A stretch of 6,391 bases of DNA from a virus (IMGVR_UViG_2778261391_000004), one strand, 5' to 3'. Positions 1 through 6,281 are shown, numbered from the stretch's first letter. The notes: a model not told the origin generated them from the letters alone. Translations and numbers: made by a program.

Positions 1-1038
1 AGTAAAACCGTTCAGCTTAATCACGGCTGGAACGATGAGGCATTTAATCCAAAGGATGCGCAGCGTTATCTCTGCCGCATCTGGAGCCTGATGCGCACGG
101 CATTCAAGGATAATGATTTACAGGTCTACGGTTTGCGTGTCGTCGAGCCACACCACGACGGAACGCCGCACTGGCATATGATGCTTTTTTGTAATCCACG
201 CCAGCGTAACCAGATTATTGAAATCATGCGTCGTTATGCGCTCAAAGAGGATGGCGACGAAAGAGGAGCCGCGCGAAACCGTTTTCAGGCAAAACACCTT
301 AACCGGGGCGGTGCTGCGGGATATATCGCGAAATACATCTCAAAAAATATCGACGGCTATGCACTGGATGGTCAGCTCGATAACGATACCGGCAGACCGC
401 TGAAAGACACTGCTGCGGCTGTTACCGCATGGGCGTCAACGTGGCGTATCCCGCAATTTAAAACGGTTGGCCTGCCGACAATGGGGGCTTACCGTGAACT
501 ACGCAAACTGCCTCGCGGCGTCAGCATTGCTGATGAGTTTGACGAACGCGTCGAGGCTGCACGCGCCGCCGCAGACAGTGGTGATTTTGCGTTGTATATC
601 AGCGCGCAGGGTGGGGCAAATGTCCCGCGCGATTGTCAGACTGTCAGGGTTGCCCGTAGCCCGTCGGATGACGTTAACGAGTACGAGGAAGAAGTCGAGA
701 GAGTGGTCGGCATTTACGCACCGCATCTCGGCGCGCGTCATATTCATATCACCAGAACCACGGACTGGCGCATTGTGCCGAAAGTGCCGGTCGTTGAGCC
801 TTTGACTTTAAAAAGCGGCATCGCCGCGCCTCGGAGTCCTGTCAATAACTGTGGAAAGCTCACCGGTGGTGATACTTCGTCACCGGCTCCCACGCCTTCT
901 GAACACGCCGCAGCAGTGCTTAATCTGGTTGATGACGGTGTTATCGAATGGAGTGACCCAGAGGTCGTCAGAGTGTTTAGAAACACATTAAAGCATTATT
1001 TGCCAATGTTTACTCGGCAAGAGAAGATAAGTGGCTAG
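1..1038 (+). CDS. A: Replication initiation endonuclease gpA (rolling-circle HUH nickase), C-terminal part; 5' end lies outside the window
   Basis: Frame 1 is open from base 1 (SKTVQLNHGWNDEAF...) to the TAG at 1036..1038. It contains an HUH motif (PHWHMM, 169..177) and a YIAKY double-tyrosine motif (322..336) like the catalytic tyrosines of phiX174/P2 A proteins. Codon usage is GC-rich like the phage backbone. Confidence 0.9.
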   Translation, partial: SKTVQLNHGWNDEAFNPKDAQRYLCRIWSLMRTAFKDNDLQVYGLRVVEPHHDGTPHWHMMLFCNPRQRNQIIEIMRRYALKEDGDERGAARNRFQAKHLNRGGAAGYIAKYISKNIDGYALDGQLDNDTGRPLKDTAAAVTAWASTWRIPQFKTVGLPTMGAYRELRKLPRGVSIADEFDERVEAARAAADSGDFALYISAQGGANVPRDCQTVRVARSPSDDVNEYEEEVERVVGIYAPHLGARHIHITRTTDWRIVPKVPVVEPLTLKSGIAAPRSPVNNCGKLTGGDTSSPAPTPSEHAAAVLNLVDDGVIEWSDPEVVRVFRNTLKHYLPMFTRQEKISG

Positions 1039-1252
1039 CTGATATAATTGCATAGGATTACATTGTTCGTTTGGATGGTCGGAGCTTGGAGAGAGTAACT
1101 GTCGTTCACTTGCTTTGAGTTTTTCAAAATGACCATCAGCAGCAAATTGGGAACTTCAGGGGGCTGGAGCGTGGCTATTAATCATCCGAAAAATCACTTT
1201 CTCACATTAAGGGATTGTTAGTTTGATTCAACTTTTAAAGCAACTATGGCTT

Positions 1253-1280
1253 TAGACAATGACTGATGTCATGATAGAAT
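1253..1280 (+). promoter_or_regulatory. Candidate sigma70 promoter for the methyltransferase gene
   Basis: -35-like TAGACA (1253..1258), 16-bp spacer, extended -10 TGaTAGAAT (1272..1280), about 40 bp upstream of the ATG at 1321. Sequence-only prediction. Confidence 0.3.
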
Positions 1281-1320
1281 ACATGATCGTTAGTTGAATC
1301 TTTAGCATGGTTATTTGAAT

Positions 1321-2472
1321 ATGAATGTAGTTGATTTATTCTCTGGAGTTGGCGGTTTAAGCTTAGGGGCAACTCGAGCCGGTTTCAACTTGGTTGGAGC
1401 TGTTGAACTGGATAAACATGCTATTTTTTCACATGAGTTAAACTTCCCAAAATCAACACATTTGCATCGGGATGTCTGCTCGCTTACAGCAAAAGATATT
1501 TTGTCTGCATGTGCTGTAAAGGACATTGATTGCGTTATTGGTGGTCCACCTTGCCAAGGATTTAGCACCATTGGAAAAAGGAATGCCAATGATACAAGAA
1601 ATGAATTGTATATTCATTTTTTTAGGTTGGTAAGTGAGTTATCTCCAATTTGTTTTTTGGCAGAGAATGTTCCAGGAATTATGGGTGAGAAATATAATCC
1701 AGTAAGAGAAGAAGCATTTTCTTTAGTTAGAGATGGCTATTGTTTATTACATCCAATAAGGGTTAATGCTTCAAATTATGGAGCACCTACGACACGGACA
1801 CGAATATTTTTCATGGGTTTTAAAAGAGGTTTTATTAATCAGTTAAAAGAATCTGATTTTTTTCCTAAAAATATAATAGAGCAGACTCTTGTCAAAGATG
1901 CACTCTACGGATTACCGCGAACTATAAGAAAAGAGTGGCAGACAGAGGAGCAAGGCTGGCGTTCAGTAAAAATGGATAAAGATGGTTACTATTATGAGCG
2001 ACTTTGGGGACATATACCAAATGGTGTAGGTGATGCAGAATCCATTCAAAATTTAAAGAAAGGATTGGTATCTGGCTTTTTAGGTACAGCTCATTCGGAG
2101 GAAGTGCTCAGGAGATATAGACAACTTTCATTCGGTGAAACTGATAAGATTTCGAGATCACAACGACTCAATCCTAACGGTTTTTGTCCAACTTTGAGAG
2201 CAGGTACAGGAAGTGACAAGGGGAGTTATCAGGCCGTTAGGCCAATTCACCCTACTCAAGCTAGGGTGATAACTCCTCGTGAAGCAGCTAGGTTACAAGG
2301 GTTTCCTGATTGGTTCCGTTTTCATCCTACAAAGTGGCACAGTTTTAGACAGATAGGTAATAGCGTTAGTCCGCTTGTGGCTGAGGCTATGCTATTACCT
2401 TTATACGATTACTGTTTAAAAGTTAAAAAAGAATCTTTGAATACCATGGAACGACCTTGTAGTATTCGATAA
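1321..2472 (+). CDS. DNA (cytosine-5)-methyltransferase (Dcm-like C5-MTase)
   Basis: Long ORF with C5-MTase motifs in canonical order: motif I FSGVGG (1339..1356), motif IV GGPPCQGFS with the catalytic Cys codon at 1552..1554, motif VI ENVPG, and motif X QIGNSVSP near the C-terminus. The ORF track starts at TTG 1315; ATG 1321 is the more likely start. AT-rich codon usage. Confidence 0.9.
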   Translation: MNVVDLFSGVGGLSLGATRAGFNLVGAVELDKHAIFSHELNFPKSTHLHRDVCSLTAKDILSACAVKDIDCVIGGPPCQGFSTIGKRNANDTRNELYIHFFRLVSELSPICFLAENVPGIMGEKYNPVREEAFSLVRDGYCLLHPIRVNASNYGAPTTRTRIFFMGFKRGFINQLKESDFFPKNIIEQTLVKDALYGLPRTIRKEWQTEEQGWRSVKMDKDGYYYERLWGHIPNGVGDAESIQNLKKGLVSGFLGTAHSEEVLRRYRQLSFGETDKISRSQRLNPNGFCPTLRAGTGSDKGSYQAVRPIHPTQARVITPREAARLQGFPDWFRFHPTKWHSFRQIGNSVSPLVAEAMLLPLYDYCLKVKKESLNTMERPCSIR

Positions 2473-3415
2473 AATTACTTAGATCGGAGTTGGCTCCAGA
2501 AGGAGTGGAGCCAATGTAAAACCCTAGAGTTTCATGGATGTTTTCTACTGAAGCTTCGGGTAATAAAGATTCAATATGTATCCTTTCTTTTAAAGACATA
2601 GCAGGGACGTTTATATTTTTAGGATTACTCCACTTCCCATCATAAAATGGCCAATTCTTGATTCTGGAATTATCAATAAATTTAGCTTCTTCTGTATCAG
2701 TGTTTTCAAGAACGATAGCTGTTAAAGTAACCATCTGTTGGCCATCTTTATAAACGAAAGAAGTTAATGGATGTATTCTTATGTCATTTCGACCTTTTAA
2801 TCCATGCCCTATTGCGCGTCTCATAGCATTAACTAGGAGCATAGGGTATTTTTTAAATCCGACATCTTCGACTACTGCATTCGGTGGTAAAAAATCTTGA
2901 GTCAAAATATCGTTTATCTTTTGAAATCTATATGCTCTTGGATCTCGTTCGCTCGGGTTTTTTCCCAAGGCTTCAGGGTTTGCATTTAAAGTGATCTTAA
3001 AAATGTCTTTGGGTTTTAGCTTTGTAACCAAATTAACTATTTCATTTAACTGAGCATTTAAGTCTGAAGGCGTTGCATAATCTAACCATATGATCGTTTT
3101 ATCGTCAAAGTTATAGCGATTGATGAAGTCTCCGCTCATTTCTGGGGTATCACCCAAATTTATGCAAGATAATGGTTTGTTAAACTGTTGTCGGCAATGG
3201 ACATTTTTATCTCCTTCGATAGATATCATTTTAGTCACTTTTAACAAATTATGAATTTGTTTGAAATCTTCGAGGAAAGGCCCCCCGAATCCTATATATA
3301 CATATTCGGATATGTTTGTATAATTGTTTAACCTTCTTAGGGATTCTATAAATAGATTCCTTTCAATGGCTTTGTTTTGCCGCAAATGATATGGGATGCT
3401 TCCGCCAGTACTCAT
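2423..3415 (-). CDS. Hypothetical protein (330 aa), second gene of the GHKL-ATPase operon; candidate effector or partner of unknown fold
   Basis: Uninterrupted 330-codon ORF whose ATG (3415..3413) overlaps the TGA of the upstream ATPase gene (ATGA coupling), with an AAGG Shine-Dalgarno-like element upstream. It has the same AT-rich composition as its neighbours. It contains a glycine-rich YVYIGFGGPF segment followed by acidic strand-end residues (ISIEGD, IIWLDY), reminiscent of a Rossmann-like fold, but function cannot be assigned by eye. Confidence 0.6.
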   Translation of the reverse strand: MSTGGSIPYHLRQNKAIERNLFIESLRRLNNYTNISEYVYIGFGGPFLEDFKQIHNLLKVTKMISIEGDKNVHCRQQFNKPLSCINLGDTPEMSGDFINRYNFDDKTIIWLDYATPSDLNAQLNEIVNLVTKLKPKDIFKITLNANPEALGKNPSERDPRAYRFQKINDILTQDFLPPNAVVEDVGFKKYPMLLVNAMRRAIGHGLKGRNDIRIHPLTSFVYKDGQQMVTLTAIVLENTDTEEAKFIDNSRIKNWPFYDGKWSNPKNINVPAMSLKERIHIESLLPEASVENIHETLGFYIGSTPSGANSDLSNFIEYYKVVPWYSKILF

Positions 3416-4836
3416 TGTTTAGCCTTTTTTAGAAATTCATCAAAACAATATTGACCAACCTCTGTTGGTGGTTGAGTTGCATCATCAAAGAGAAACTCTG
3501 ACACCAGTTTTATTTCACTATGTCTACGGCTAAATTTTATCTGACGTAATGGATCCGAATCCCGAGGCATTGGTAGCTTCGGTTTGAAAACTTCTCCTCC
3601 TATTGAACGTCGAACGTTCGACCAGTTTTCTCTAGGAATTGATTTAGTAAAGTCGACCTCAGTTGTTGAAACCATATTGGATGCAGTATTAATAATTTGC
3701 TTTCTTTCCTCTGCGTTACTTTTCCATTTGTTGGTAAAGTCCGTGAAGAATTTTAAACCCTCGCGCATAAAATCTTTAGTAGAAAGATATAGCTCAGAGT
3801 TACCATCAACACCTCGTTTAGTTGTAGTGATAGGTAGTAATTCAGCATTTGATGATGTGAAAATAACAACACCAGAAATTCCGATGAATTGAGTATGATA
3901 TTGTGGAACTCCAGCTTCTCCCCAACCTGTAAGCTTGGTTTTATCCGCATGTAGGACTACACGATCATTGCATATAATTGTCCAACCAGCTTTTTCTGTT
4001 GTGGAACGGCCTGATAATAAATTCTCTTCTTCTTCCTCACTAGGCAAGTTACGATAAAATCCAACTGCAACTTTAATTGAAACTCCATTTGAATTATTTT
4101 TATATACATAAGGAGCAATGCCGTCGGTATTGCCTTTAATGGCTTCTTCATCAAATATTAAATTGGTGCTATTTGGCTTAACAATACATCCATTTACTTT
4201 AACCTCAAACCCTTTTTTAATGATTAAACTATAATGATTTGCTATGATATTAATCAAAACTTCTTCAAAGCCACGATCCTTTGATAGGGATGCTTTAATA
4301 TCTTTCCTTAAATTGTTAATTTGGATGCTGACGCCTGTTTCGTTTAAGTCAACATTATTTCGCTCTAACTCCAAAGACCAGTTTTCATCATCAGCCATCC
4401 ATTCAGGAGAAATGGTAACTGAAAATTGTTCGTTTTCAGTTTTGCTTAAAATCTGAGCAGATGTCCCCATTTTGAAAATCGCTCGTTTCATTCCGATACC
4501 ATATACACCAATTGTCGGGAGATCATCCGCCTCACGTTCTGCAGGTCTACCCAACCTAAACGCATAGCTTTCCGCAAGTTTTGCTGGAATACCTCCGCAA
4601 TTATCAGTTATTCTGAAACTATTCTCATCAAATTCAATATGAGCATAGTAACCCTTGTAAACGTCTGATTTACCGAAGGTTTGCTCTGGAGTGAAATTGT
4701 TTTTTCTTAATACACCATCTAGGCAGTTATCTAGTAAATCTAGAATTGAGTCAGACAACTCAATATCTCGGGTGAGCATCTCAACAAAGAATCTTTTTGC
4801 TGGAAATGCTGCTATTTTGACGTTTGACGAAACCAT
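3412..4836 (-). CDS. GHKL-superfamily ATPase, MORC/HATPase_c_3-like (474 aa)
   Basis: Bergerat-fold motifs in canonical order in the N-terminal 120 residues: N-box DLLDNCLDG (4717..4740), G1 box DNCGG (4591..4605), G2 box GVYGIGMK (4486..4509). AAGGA Shine-Dalgarno 6 nt upstream of the ATG at 4836. Long ORF with AT-rich codon usage. Confidence 0.8.
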   Translation of the reverse strand: MVSSNVKIAAFPAKRFFVEMLTRDIELSDSILDLLDNCLDGVLRKNNFTPEQTFGKSDVYKGYYAHIEFDENSFRITDNCGGIPAKLAESYAFRLGRPAEREADDLPTIGVYGIGMKRAIFKMGTSAQILSKTENEQFSVTISPEWMADDENWSLELERNNVDLNETGVSIQINNLRKDIKASLSKDRGFEEVLINIIANHYSLIIKKGFEVKVNGCIVKPNSTNLIFDEEAIKGNTDGIAPYVYKNNSNGVSIKVAVGFYRNLPSEEEEENLLSGRSTTEKAGWTIICNDRVVLHADKTKLTGWGEAGVPQYHTQFIGISGVVIFTSSNAELLPITTTKRGVDGNSELYLSTKDFMREGLKFFTDFTNKWKSNAEERKQIINTASNMVSTTEVDFTKSIPRENWSNVRRSIGGEVFKPKLPMPRDSDPLRQIKFSRRHSEIKLVSEFLFDDATQPPTEVGQYCFDEFLKKAKQ

Positions 4837-4859
4837 AAATTATCCTTTTTCGAACAGTA

Positions 4860-4889
4860 ATTTTCGCATTCATGCATAATGGCTGTGAA
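4860..4889 (-). promoter_or_regulatory. Candidate sigma70 promoter for the ATPase/330-aa operon
   Basis: On the minus strand: -35-like TTCACA (4889..4884), 18-bp spacer, -10-like GAAAAT (4865..4860), about 25 nt upstream of the ATG at 4836. Weak match, sequence-only. Confidence 0.25.
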
Positions 4890-5034
4890 CGAAGATTCGT
4901 CTTGATTAGGCGTGCATGATTTTGCATACAAAATGTATGAAAAAAAAAGCTGCCTGTCTATGACTGATAGCCGTCTAGTTACTTGGTTTTCAAGACAAAT
5001 GCGACTGCATCAAAACCGTCTCATGAAGCGGGCG

Positions 5035-5053
5035 GGCGAGGCGGGGAAAGCAC
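5035..5053. other. cos site: 19-nt cohesive-end sequence of P2-type phages (terminase cleavage site)
   Basis: Exact occurrence of GGCGAGGCGGGGAAAGCAC, which I recall as the P2/186 cohesive end, in the expected place between the cargo region and gene Q. Confidence 0.75.
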
Positions 5054-5086: not shown

Positions 5087-5123
5087 CAGCGTCTCAGCGT
5101 CTCAGCGTCTCAGCGTCTCAGCG
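5087..5123. repeat. Tandem direct repeat (CAGCGTCT)x4 plus partial copy CAGCG, 34 bp downstream of cos
   Basis: Read directly from the sequence: cagcgtct cagcgtct cagcgtct cagcgtct cagcg. Confidence 0.85.
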
Positions 5124-5246: not shown

Positions 5247-6281
5247 TCAGTCGTTGTCAGTGTCCAGTGAGTAGTTTTTAAAGCGGATGACCTCCTGACC
5301 GAGCCAGCCGTTTATCTCGCGGATCCTGTCCTGTAACGGGATAAGCTCATTGCGGACAAAGACCTTTGCCACTTTCTCAATATCACCCAGCGACCCGACG
5401 TTCTCCGGCTTGCCGCCCATCAACTGAAAGGGGATGCGGTGCGCGTCCAGCAGGTCTGCGGCGCTGGCTTTTTTGATATTAAAAAAATCGTCCTTCGTCG
5501 CCACTTCACTGAGCGGGATAATTTTAATGCCGTCGGCTTTCCCCTGCGGGGCATAGAGAAACAGATTTTTAAAGTTATTGCGGCCTTTCGACTTAACCAT
5601 GTTTTCGCGAAGCATTTCGATATCGTTGCGATCCTGCACGGCATCGGTGACGTACATGATGTATCCGGCATGTGCGCCATTTTCGTAATACTTGCGGCGG
5701 AACAGCGTGGCCGACTCATTCAGCCAGGCAGAGTTAAGGGCGCTGAGATATTCCGGCAGGCCGTACAGCTCCTGATTAATATCCGGCTCCAGCAGGTGAA
5801 ACACGGAACCGGGCGCGAAGGCTGTCGGCTCGTTGAAGGACGGCACCCACCAGTAAACATCCTCTTCCACACCACGGCGGGTATATTTTGCCGGTGAGGT
5901 TTCCAGTCTGATGACTTTACCGGTAGTGCTGTAACGCTTTTCCAGAAACGCATTACCGAACACCAGAAAATCCAGCACAAAGCGGCTGAAATCCTGCTGG
6001 GAAAGCCACGGATGCGGGATAAATGTCGAGGCCAGAATATTGCGTTTGACGTAAATCGGCGAGCTGTGATGCACGGCAGCACGCAGGCTTTTCGCCAGAC
6101 CGGTAAAGCTGACCGGCGGCTCATACCATCTGCCGTTACTGATGCACTCGACGTAATCCAGAATGTCACGGCGGTCGAGTACCGGCACCGGCTCACCAAA
6201 GGTGAATGCCTCCATTTTCGGGGCGCTGGCGGTCATTTTTTTTGCCGCAGGTTGCGGTGTTTTCCCTTTTTTCTTGCTCAT
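5247..6281 (-). CDS. Q: Portal protein gpQ (capsid portal vertex protein)
   Basis: 344-aa ORF (MSKKKGKTPQPAAKK...DTDND) that I recognise as the P2 Q protein. GC-rich backbone composition, followed by a terminator and positioned next to cos as in P2. Confidence 0.95.
   Translation of the reverse strand: MSKKKGKTPQPAAKKMTASAPKMEAFTFGEPVPVLDRRDILDYVECISNGRWYEPPVSFTGLAKSLRAAVHHSSPIYVKRNILASTFIPHPWLSQQDFSRFVLDFLVFGNAFLEKRYSTTGKVIRLETSPAKYTRRGVEEDVYWWVPSFNEPTAFAPGSVFHLLEPDINQELYGLPEYLSALNSAWLNESATLFRRKYYENGAHAGYIMYVTDAVQDRNDIEMLRENMVKSKGRNNFKNLFLYAPQGKADGIKIIPLSEVATKDDFFNIKKASAADLLDAHRIPFQLMGGKPENVGSLGDIEKVAKVFVRNELIPLQDRIREINGWLGQEVIRFKNYSLDTDND

Follow-up and report, generated by a model that had tools for sequence, protein, structure and literature searches.

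The insert between gpA and cos

Positions 996-4998 of the window (the whole stretch of 6,391 nucleotides analysed here) form an AT-rich insert bounded by P2 gpA on one side and by cos and the portal gene Q on the other (Table 1), the RefSeq gene order being int-cox-...-gpA / insert / Q-P-O-N. GC content is 0.31-0.45 over about 1050-4950 versus 0.50-0.59 in the flanks, and homology to a second P2-like prophage ends at 995 and restarts at 4999. The ORFs confirm the three AT-rich genes of the initial annotation, as well as the proposed convergent operon, whose two genes share 4 nt (ATGA, seen directly in the sequence) and which overlaps the 3' end of the methyltransferase gene by 50 nt. At the left junction gpA is shortened by ~80 codons; it is 94% identical to residues 373-684 of a 766-aa gpA, similarity stops there, and RefSeq flags it as "missing C-terminus". 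On the right, the 19-mer that we take to be the P2 cos sequence matches exactly, while 0 of 200 shuffles did. Thus, the insert adjoins cos, as does the anti-phage hotspot of P2-like prophages, and together with the gpA and Q flanks this bears out the proposed hotspot location (PMC9122126).

Table 1. Features of the window (positions counted from its first nucleotide).
Feature	Position	Strand	Basis
3' part of P2 replication gene A	91..1038	+	PF05840 1.6e-39
Promoter-like site upstream of the C5 methyltransferase gene	1253..1280	+	TAGACA-16-TAGAAT, with TG; consensus scan 10/12, pattern match only
C5 DNA cytosine methyltransferase, 3G7U-like family	1315..2472	+	PF00145, TIGR00675
Convergent 3' overlap of the methyltransferase and PF20553 genes, 50 nt	2423..2472	.	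ORF coordinates
PF20553 ("Methyltransf_35") protein, 330 aa, second operon gene	2423..3415	-	Pfam match and fold
GHKL ATPase, 474 aa, first operon gene	3412..4836	-	HATPase_c_3; Foldseek
Two promoter-like sites upstream of the ATPase operon	4889-4860 (with TG); 4960-4932	-	consensus scan 9/12 each, pattern match only
P2 cos cohesive-end sequence, right landmark of the hotspot	5035..5053	+	exact 19/19 match
P2 portal protein Q	5247..6281	-	PF04860 3.2e-14; RefSeq "phage portal protein"

Two methyltransferase folds and a GHKL ATPase

The product of the forward gene, whose RefSeq start lies at 1321 instead of the ORF start at 1315, is the C5 methyltransferase initially proposed (PF00145, 1.7e-59, 202 bits against a cut-off of 22; TIGR00675, 2.5e-51, 175 bits against 100.65; PDB 3G7U, E 3.8e-155). 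Among PADLOC models, MTase_II (5e-100) outscores DrmMII (3e-49). Its translation retains all catalytic motifs (GGPPCQGFS, ENV, RxR and GNSV), with P79, C80, Q81, E117, N118, V119, R161 and R163 invariant over 64 partner C5 methyltransferases. Judging from these complete motifs and from relatives often accompanied by Vsr, the enzyme implies that the resident DNA would carry real 5mC. The locus does not qualify as a type II restriction-modification system, since profile and fold searches of the two partner proteins revealed no cognate endonuclease. Convergent overlaps similar to that of the window (-39 to -50 nt) recur at several loci (e.g., L010-L012, L015 and L022) and on P2-like viral contigs.

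The ATPase consists of a GHKL domain, an S5/transducer-like middle domain and a C-terminal region of ~100 aa. Its MORC-like character, already suspected, is supported by HATPase_c_3 (2.6e-8, 34.4 bits against a cut-off of 25) and by Foldseek matches to Hsp90, SMCHD1 and MORC2 at E 1e-13 to 1e-16, in which more than 410 columns align with the N-terminal and middle domains of those proteins. Bergerat-fold motifs I-IV are present and conserved (DLLDNCLDG, DNCGG, GVYGIGMKRA and a GT-type motif), the invariant residues being D33, D36, N37, D40 and G41; D78, G81 and G82; G110, G113, G115 and K117; and K340. The latter, within TTTKRG, may contact ATP, model confidence being moderate in this region. 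The general-base position of motif I is Asp (D33) and not Glu in 64 of 64 sequences, in a register relative to MutL and MORC that we presume from their motifs, and it is likewise Asp in nine paralogous GHKL2 proteins. These paralogues adjoin the same Dcm family and bear C-terminal helical domains, one of which displays an RNPKAH (HEPN-like Rx4H) motif and weak similarity to PD-Lambda-5_A. Judged by its ATGA overlap, the ATPase gene is translationally coupled to that of the 330-aa protein.

This second protein, initially regarded as a possible effector of unknown fold, turns out to belong to PF20553 (286.1 bits, E 4.6e-85, residues 3-328 of 330; gathering score 27 bits), a family matched by all 25 aligned homologues. 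Its AlphaFold model (pLDDT 90) displays the seven-stranded Rossmann-like fold of class I SAM-methyltransferases, with G44-G45 behind strand 39-43 and E67 behind strand 62-66, as expected for SAM binding. E67 is invariant in 64 PF20553 sequences, where conservation of G44/G45 reaches at least 95%. Over the full set of 80 loci, the GG of motif I, E67 of motif II, W110-x-D112 of motif IV and an N-terminal Y-H-x-R-x-N-K-x3-R motif are invariant or nearly so, the few changes at the SAM motifs being conservative (G to A/S, E to D). Thus, going by the model and its retained SAM-binding motifs, the 330-aa protein is a second predicted methyltransferase of the cassette; its label "putative O-methyltransferase" is Pfam and PGAP naming only. 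The closest solved folds are RNA methyltransferases (Trm1, RsmD-like, RlmI/RlmO, TYW2, RlmJ and METTL16), with Trm1, an exocyclic-amine nucleic-acid methyltransferase, on top. A PDB profile search with the protein returned no solved or characterised sequence relative, and hence no sequence-level relation to the Trm1 and RsmD-type enzymes. Unlike them, PF20553 combines its invariant N-terminal motif with a C-terminal helical extension, and its motif IV also differs from theirs, reading W-L-D-Y/F versus the (D/N/S)PP(Y/F/W) of amino-methyltransferases.

Co-occurrence, gene order and genomic contexts

The expected co-occurrence across genomes is very strong and far exceeds chance. GHKL lies directly upstream of PF20553 in 80 of 80 genome loci from more than 15 phyla, the stop and start codons nearly always overlapping (by 4 nt in 52 of 78), and a C5 methyltransferase, mostly of the one 3G7U-like family, is adjacent to the pair in 66. 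The order Dcm>GHKL>PF20553> occurs in 35 loci, with a gap of at most 60 nt in 31 of them, and the convergent order in 20. GHKL distances track those of PF20553 (Spearman 0.58), the corresponding values with Dcm being 0.16-0.20. Identity among the sampled loci spans 26-100%, so they are not one recently spread element. The target-recognition region of the partner methyltransferases is about as conserved as the core in most loci, which makes them essentially one family; at least three sequence classes of Dcm partner are nonetheless distinguished, and they are swapped more freely than the pair itself.

The trio is also present in the E. coli O157:H7 prophage Sp10 (ECs_1953-1955), as Tn7-like cargo in V. 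cholerae, in the Pf phage PfAC20 and on 38 IMG/VR contigs, besides the P2 gpA-Q hotspot. Transcripts of the O157:H7 homologues ECs1954 and ECs1955 are present in the lysogen, where they co-vary with growth phase (PMC2241611). Since this hotspot frequently houses more than one system (PMC9122126), the genes might be conceived as three unrelated pieces of cargo, chance neighbours in a variable prophage region. Against this, dozens of unrelated settings and phyla show the same three families side by side, in a conserved order and with codons that overlap, and the co-occurrence data in practice refute such an origin, which we regard as negligible.

Vsr is found in 23 of the 80 loci. MutL stimulates Vsr in E. 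coli, and the GHKL+S5 architecture of the ATPase would suit a housekeeping accessory of 5mC metabolism, in which a MutL-like GHKL protein assists very-short-patch repair of deaminated 5mC, PF20553 is an auxiliary and immunity plays no role. Nonetheless, vsr is missing from the window cassette and from most loci, the pair also exists without any Dcm, the cassette travels in anti-phage hotspots, Tn7 cargo and DISARM operons, and PF20553 has no place in such a scheme, all of which renders it very improbable.

About eight loci (six cyanobacterial and two from Parabeggiatoa) hold an intact pair without a methyltransferase within ~8 kb. Protection by a linked Dcm is therefore not obligatory for the pair, and the strict restriction-modification-like coupling envisaged initially is weakened. 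To our knowledge, no methyltransferase toxin has been described in abortive-infection systems. The Dcm-free cyanobacterial pairs, the RNA methyltransferases among the best PF20553 fold matches, and the helical C-termini of the GHKL2 paralogues, including the one weakly similar to a component of PD-Lambda-5, described as a compacted RM+Abi system, would nevertheless suit an abortive-infection module guarding methylation-based defences. The ATPase would then sense a phage protein, an inhibitor of methylation-based immunity or SAM depletion, and the licensed PF20553 enzyme would methylate host tRNA, rRNA or a nucleotide and stop translation, Dcm being a frequent neighbour or the guarded system instead of the self-marker of the pair. 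Mere neighbourhood, however, explains neither the conserved and often translationally tight Dcm-GHKL-PF20553 operon nor the single Dcm family across phyla, and we consider this improbable.

In complete DISARM operons of class 1, one clade of the pair occupies the position between drmMI and drmA (28 of 33 metagenome loci), the order being DrmMII-DrmD-DrmMI-GHKL-PF20553-DrmA-DrmB-DrmC. Thus, as far as gene content indicates, the pair is modular, and appears either within a three-gene cassette with its own Dcm (in prophages, transposons and chromosomes) or as an insert of a DISARM subtype. This embedding strengthens its tie to methylation-based defence and makes the cassette a good candidate for a new immune module, linked to methylation and apparently free of nucleases.

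Possible interference without a detected nuclease

No nuclease family was found for either partner of the pair in Pfam, NCBIfam, PADLOC or PHROGs, and fold searches of the ATPase and the PF20553 protein gave no nuclease match. Of the R-M-like or modification-dependent defence initially suggested, the link to methylation-based defence is strengthened by the DISARM operons; a classical ATP-dependent restriction by cleavage is not indicated, and interference, if any, would be closer to that of BREX or DISARM.

Our leading, though still tentative, reading is that Dcm, GHKL and PF20553 function together as a single cassette, belonging to a widespread system without a name that would discriminate self from non-self by DNA methylation, as favoured by nucleotide- and SAM-binding motifs maintained over more than 15 phyla. 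It may operate in an R-M/BREX-like manner, which we hold to be somewhat less likely than not: the Dcm-type enzyme would mark resident DNA, and the ATPase dimer would form with the PF20553 protein a complex acting as the interference arm against unmarked DNA. Such a complex might (i) clamp or compact target DNA in the manner of MORC, through an ATP-driven GHKL dimer, while the subunit with the methyltransferase fold would read or flip target bases, or (ii) covalently modify the invading nucleic acid in a SAM-dependent manner. Against this reading, the cassette contains no canonical effector that we could find, some pairs lack a linked Dcm, the solved folds closest to PF20553 are RNA methyltransferases, the DISARM operons holding the pair already have two methyltransferases and their own effector proteins, and the exchange of Dcm partners fits poorly with a fixed matching specificity, unless recognition is provided by Dcm itself.

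A bolder formulation, possible but doubtful, is that GHKL and PF20553 are a new immune effector module stopping foreign DNA without a nuclease, the ATP-driven clamp delivering a SAM-dependent methyltransferase that would mark or trap nucleic acid lacking the resident methylation pattern. If true, a DISARM subtype would possess in this module a fourth functional unit so far overlooked, and the module would be a prokaryotic counterpart of eukaryotic MORC-type, methylation-linked silencing.

ATPase partners of DNA-modifying enzymes are known, DndD aiding Dnd and DpdB aiding DpdA. Considering in addition (i) the intact SAM site and conserved substrate cleft of PF20553, (ii) the exocyclic-amine activity of its best fold match, (iii) a trio without a detected nuclease and (iv) the methyltransferase genes adjoining the pair in DISARM, the locus could encode only a DNA-modification machine, where GHKL-aided PF20553 installs a second methyl mark beside 5mC (exocyclic-amine methylation or N4,5-dimethylcytosine). 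Any restriction would come from elsewhere (e.g., DISARM DrmABC), and for a mobile element the marks would be a means of anti-restriction or an epigenetic tag. We judge this unlikely, as three modification activities per DISARM operon look redundant, motif IV departs from that of amino-methyltransferases, most loci keep the pair without a linked restriction module, and the hotspots bearing the cassette are filled by interference systems (PMC9122126).

As for existing names, PADLOC-DB v2.0.0 (including Hma, Mza, HEC, PD-*, Shedu and BREX) holds 0 families matching the ATPase or PF20553 at E up to 0.1, and pair homologues from V. cholerae, an archaeon and a DISARM locus gave 0 matches at stricter thresholds. 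A literature search found no named system either, so the initial statement to that effect stands. The novelty claimed is more limited, in that the Rousset 2022 hotspot census already lists the cassette, unnamed; no entry "methylase" was found in its table of cloned systems.

Iyer, Abhiman & Aravind (2008) predicted that MORC/paraMORC ATPases act with R-M-type systems, tied mainly to SF-II helicases and RE-fold, HNH or TIR nucleases (PMC2292703). As described in the passages of that work considered here, which do not mention a methyltransferase-fold partner of the PF20553 kind, prokaryotic MORC/paraMORC proteins share with the cassette GHKL and S5/transducer-like domains and DNA cytosine methylase and Vsr neighbours, while the cassette lacks both helicase and nuclease and replaces the general-base Glu by Asp. 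Hma, a PADLOC 2021 candidate formed by the SNF2 helicase HmaA, the m5C methyltransferase HmaB and the ATPase HmaC, resembles it in its three genes, m5C methyltransferase plus ATPase, many phyla and candidate status (PMC8565338), but has a helicase and no PF20553 protein, and its models do not match the window ATPase (E up to 0.1). In the validated GHKL-nuclease Shedu (VcSduA/paraMORC3), a GHKL ATPase is thought to control the effector (PMC12137116); this effector is a fused DUF4263 PD-(D/E)xK nuclease, whereas the cassette lacks DUF4263 and its candidate effector is a separate SAM-methyltransferase-fold protein. The analogy with BREX is functional, a methyltransferase marking self and ATPase-containing partners blocking phage with no known nuclease; PglX, PglZ, BrxC and BrxL homologues are absent from the window, and size and composition are entirely different. 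Likewise, the window cassette is not itself DISARM, as DrmA, DrmB (DUF1998) and DrmC/D are absent from the window. Class 1 DISARM (DrmD, DrmMI, DrmA, DrmB, DrmC, ± DrmMII) is nonetheless methylation-based and largely nuclease-independent, as the cassette is predicted to be, and some of its operons contain a GHKL/PF20553 clade as an integral, collinear part.

The hotspot insert and its genes

The window forms part of an E. coli P2-like prophage, flanked on the left by the 3' part of replication gene A and on the right by portal gene Q, both assigned with Pfam, and the RefSeq gene order around the insert is int, cox, gpA, insert, Q, P, O, N. Between these flanks the sequence is AT-rich (GC 0.31-0.45, versus 0.50-0.59 outside), the match to a second P2-like prophage stops at 995 and restarts at 4999, and an exact match to the 19-mer of the P2 cohesive ends (cos) follows. 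The homology breaks and the cos 19-mer together identify the insert as an occupant of the cos-adjacent gpA-Q hotspot, which houses old and tin in P2 (PMC9122126). Open reading frames, GC content, homology breaks and cos thus bear out the initial annotation, which had placed three genes in an AT-rich block of this hotspot; the right boundary that it gave, 5034, is the last base before cos. An Rfam scan of the window returned no match.

The 474-aa and 330-aa genes share an ATGA stop/start overlap, confirming that they form a translationally coupled operon, while the methylase and PF20553 genes converge with a 50-nt overlap at 2423-2472. The same convergent overlap is kept in several other convergent loci and in P2-like viral contigs, and through it the two arms could be kept in balance by antisense effects or transcriptional interference. 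RefSeq treats gene A of the window as a pseudogene missing its C-terminus, and replication of the prophage may be impaired by the insertion or recombination that brought the cassette. DNA at least 99% identical is found in 46 of 5,426 complete E. coli genomes, chromosomal in every case.

Features of the window and of homologous loci
Feature	Sequence	Coordinates	Strand	Remarks
Truncated replication gene A	window	91-1038		junction near 995; ~80 codons shorter than the 766-aa gpA of the sister prophage; few unrelated end residues
C5 DNA methyltransferase	window	1315-2472	+	RefSeq start 1321
330-aa gene (PF20553)	window	2423-3415	-	ORF
474-aa gene (GHKL ATPase)	window	3412-4836	-	ORF
cos 19-mer	window	5035-5053		exact match
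Four tandem CAGCGTCT 8-mers	window	5087-5118		downstream of the cos 19-mer
Sp10 trio	L130	4795-8294		between replication genes and antiterminator
PfAC20 trio	L090	280-6082		filamentous phage of Pseudomonas
GHKL2 loci	L006	10256-12088		also L014, L018, L019, L021, L023, L029, L037, L041
DISARM class-1 subtype, pair between drmMI and drmA	L131, 27 metagenome loci, L091, L064			DrmMII and DrmMI methylases

Conservation of the trio and its carriers

With one genome scanned per species, 80 loci were obtained, spread over more than 15 phyla and including one archaeon. The GHKL gene lies directly upstream of the PF20553 gene in all 80, in fragmented form at L038 and L087; the two genes overlap by 4 nt in 52 of 78 loci, and a C5 methyltransferase is adjacent in 66 of the 80. 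Among 62 classifiable loci, the order is methylase, GHKL and PF20553 on one strand in 35 (with a gap of at most 60 nt in 31), while 20 share the convergent layout of the window and 7 are arranged otherwise. Distances of the GHKL and PF20553 proteins correlate with each other (Spearman 0.58), versus only 0.16-0.20 for either with the methylase. The genes of the trio are a conserved unit, and their being mere chance neighbours is effectively excluded.

The pair of ATPase and PF20553 protein is also found within DISARM. On a plasmid of Microvirga terrae it sits between the MmeI-like DrmMI and DrmA of an annotated DISARM operon, and a metagenome scan with this copy recovered 33 loci of 65-86% identity, 28 of which carry DrmA directly after PF20553 and/or DrmMI directly before the ATPase. 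A C5 methylase stands upstream of DrmD in ten metagenome loci with enough flank. The full series DrmMII-DrmD-DrmMI-[GHKL-PF20553]-DrmA-DrmB-DrmC was confirmed with PADLOC in L131, whose two inserted proteins match no model of PADLOC v2. That the link was a single chance event, limited to the Microvirga plasmid and one metagenome-assembled genome, was rejected, as the metagenome scan revealed a conserved clade. Since two members of this clade (L142 and L145) are plain sets of methylase, GHKL and PF20553 genes, the pair appears as a module working either with its own methylase or inside a methylation-based defence.

Other carriers are diverse. A 65%-identical variant occupies the same hotspot in other P2-like prophages, and the cassette travels as cargo beside tnsABCDE-like genes in Vibrio cholerae and lies in a chromosomal island in Pseudomonas syringae. 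In filamentous phage PfAC20 the trio takes up about a quarter of a 13.6-kb genome, which also bears a second, short "DNA cytosine methyltransferase" gene (ORF9). IMG/VR contributed 38 contigs, 21 of them with the P2 hotspot and 17 from other prophages; the ATPase is present in 37 and the C5 methylase in 36. A diverged trio (ECs_1953, ECs_1954 and ECs_1955; 63%, 35% and 43% identity) resides in Sp10, a lambdoid prophage of E. coli O157:H7 Sakai, in a region confined to O157:H7 lineage I (PMC1890555), and ECs1954/ECs1955 are transcribed in the lysogen during exponential phase, with a joint drop at the growth transition (PMC2241611). In several filamentous cyanobacteria (L027, L030 and L032 of the Nostocales, and also L036), the pair is placed beside long membrane proteins of NADH-dehydrogenase/antiporter type, PF00361 being confirmed in the neighbor solely for L036. 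No methyltransferase was found within ~8 kb of these four cyanobacterial pairs, whose location looks like a stable chromosomal one and not a mobile element.

Features of the three proteins

The methyltransferase is a standard C5 enzyme (PF00145, 1.7e-59; TIGR00675, 2.5e-51) with all catalytic motifs intact. It closely matches PDB 3G7U (E 3.8e-155), the structural-genomics structure of the methyltransferase from E. coli O157:H7 prophage CP-933R; 3G7U is apparently the EDL933 counterpart of the Sp10 methylase. The partner methylase nearly always belongs to one family, its target-recognition region is conserved about as well as the catalytic core, and it is still 50-56% identical to the window enzyme where PF20553 falls to 26-30%. 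The family occurs in 225 of 5,426 complete E. coli genomes. In 23 loci of the 80-locus scan the set comes with a Vsr endonuclease and, Vsr being the usual companion of enzymes that truly place 5mC in resident DNA, this company fits such a role for the methylase family. That the set is an accessory of 5mC repair seems very improbable.

The 474-aa protein is a GHKL ATPase (HATPase_c_3), whose model (pLDDT 77) can be aligned to the N-terminal and middle domains of Hsp90, SMCHD1 and MORC2 across more than 410 columns. Motifs I-IV and K340, the lysine in TTTKRG, are invariant among 64 diverse GHKL homologues. When aligned by the known motifs of these families, MutL, MORC and Hsp90 carry their catalytic Glu, the general base, at the position that is an invariant Asp (D33, motif I) in the GHKL homologues and likewise in the paralogues called GHKL2. 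The substitution suggests slow hydrolysis or a clamp- or timer-like cycle and, as a signature of the clade, can be used to detect it. GHKL2 proteins are longer (570-610 aa) and lie beside the same methylase family in 8 genome loci and the V. cholerae Tn7-like cargo; their C-terminal domains vary, an RNPKAH (HEPN-like) motif occurs in one of them, and weak matches to PD-Lambda-5_A were obtained for three of the proteins scanned. These loci look like a sister system with the effector fused to the ATPase.

Contrary to the initial annotation, the fold of the 330-aa protein can be recognised: Pfam assigns the protein to PF20553 ("Methyltransf_35, putative O-methyltransferase"; 4.6e-85), and its confident model (pLDDT 90.4) has a class I SAM-methyltransferase fold. 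No experimental basis was found for the "O-" in the family name, and PDB sequence searches with the GHKL and PF20553 proteins, single-sequence and profile, gave chance matches only. Some 22 positions checked across the 80 homologues taken from genomes vary little or not at all; they include the glycine pair after beta-1, the acidic E67 after beta-2, W110-x-D112 after beta-4, an N-terminal Y-H-x-R-x-N-K-x3-R motif and Y222-x-D224. Such a pattern would be expected of an active enzyme that acts on a single defined substrate, probably a phosphate-bearing one. Run against 1.84 billion representatives, a profile search sized the family at ~1,970 clusters at 50% identity; the best 150 of these are all stand-alone proteins free of domain fusions, mostly of 300-380 aa, with a few shorter and apparently partial ones. 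A relaxed scan of 25 members found no second Pfam family. The methyltransferase fold, being RNA-methyltransferase-like, is consistent with RNA methylation by PF20553 as part of an abortive-infection module, although we regard this as rather unlikely. Somewhat less unlikely, yet still doubtful, is a machine dedicated to modification only, with PF20553 and the ATPase installing a second mark.

Proposed action and comparison with known systems

ATP-binding residues of the ATPase and SAM-binding residues of PF20553 are kept everywhere, and the cassette is found in defence hotspots and in DISARM. The reading that we tentatively prefer is that the methylase marks self and the pair acts on unmarked DNA. 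The coupled translation suggests that ATPase and PF20553 form a complex, which would interfere with DNA lacking the mark that the methylase may place on resident DNA. Since no nuclease domain is detectable in either protein with Pfam, NCBIfam, PADLOC or PHROGs, this interference would resemble that of BREX or DISARM: a GHKL dimer might clamp DNA in an ATP-driven manner while the methyltransferase-fold subunit engages target bases, or the invader might be covalently methylated. Against this reading stand eight loci with an intact pair and no nearby methylase, together with the freer swapping of the methylase partner than of the pair.

The proposal of an unnamed, methyltransferase-linked defence system with a GHKL ATPase is partly supported. 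The DISARM embedding strengthens it. The suggested R-M-like mechanism is hypothetical and cannot involve a recognisable nuclease, and there is a real chance that the effector mechanism is categorically new. If the trio defends, it would be a compact (~3.6 kb) methylation-linked system whose interference arm is nuclease-free and whose likely effector is a methyltransferase, an arrangement for which we know of no precedent among characterised anti-phage systems. A function would then be assigned to the PF20553 family, to PDB 3G7U (solved, with no functional annotation) and to three "hypothetical" Sp10 genes, and a DISARM subtype with two extra core genes would bear on the still unclear DISARM mechanism. 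Likewise, a tractable cassette of an E. coli prophage would allow tests of the ancestry proposed for the methylation-linked chromatin silencing of eukaryotic MORC.

As in the initial annotation, no named system was recognised: neither the ATPase and PF20553 proteins of the window nor their distant homologues have a match in PADLOC-DB v2.0.0, and PHROGs lists both proteins as "unknown function". Literature searches on PF20553/Methyltransf_35, HATPase_c_3 in defence and GHKL with methyltransferase found nothing relevant. The table of cloned systems in Rousset 2022 holds no "methylase" entry, and the cassette is thus taken as catalogued in that hotspot census but absent from the tested systems. 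Several named systems were rejected as identities: WonAB (ABC ATPase and nuclease), VcSduA (GHKL fused to DUF4263), CapK/CapS (HTH-STAS-GHKL kinase and STAS-wHTH) and PD-Lambda-5, whose weak C-terminal similarity is confined to the GHKL2 paralogue. Hma, the nearest named candidate, was likewise set aside because it has a helicase and lacks PF20553. Prokaryotic GHKL ATPases have been predicted to act in R-M systems beside Dcm and Vsr, with helicases and nucleases as partners, unlike those of the window cassette (Iyer, Abhiman and Aravind 2008; PMC2292703).
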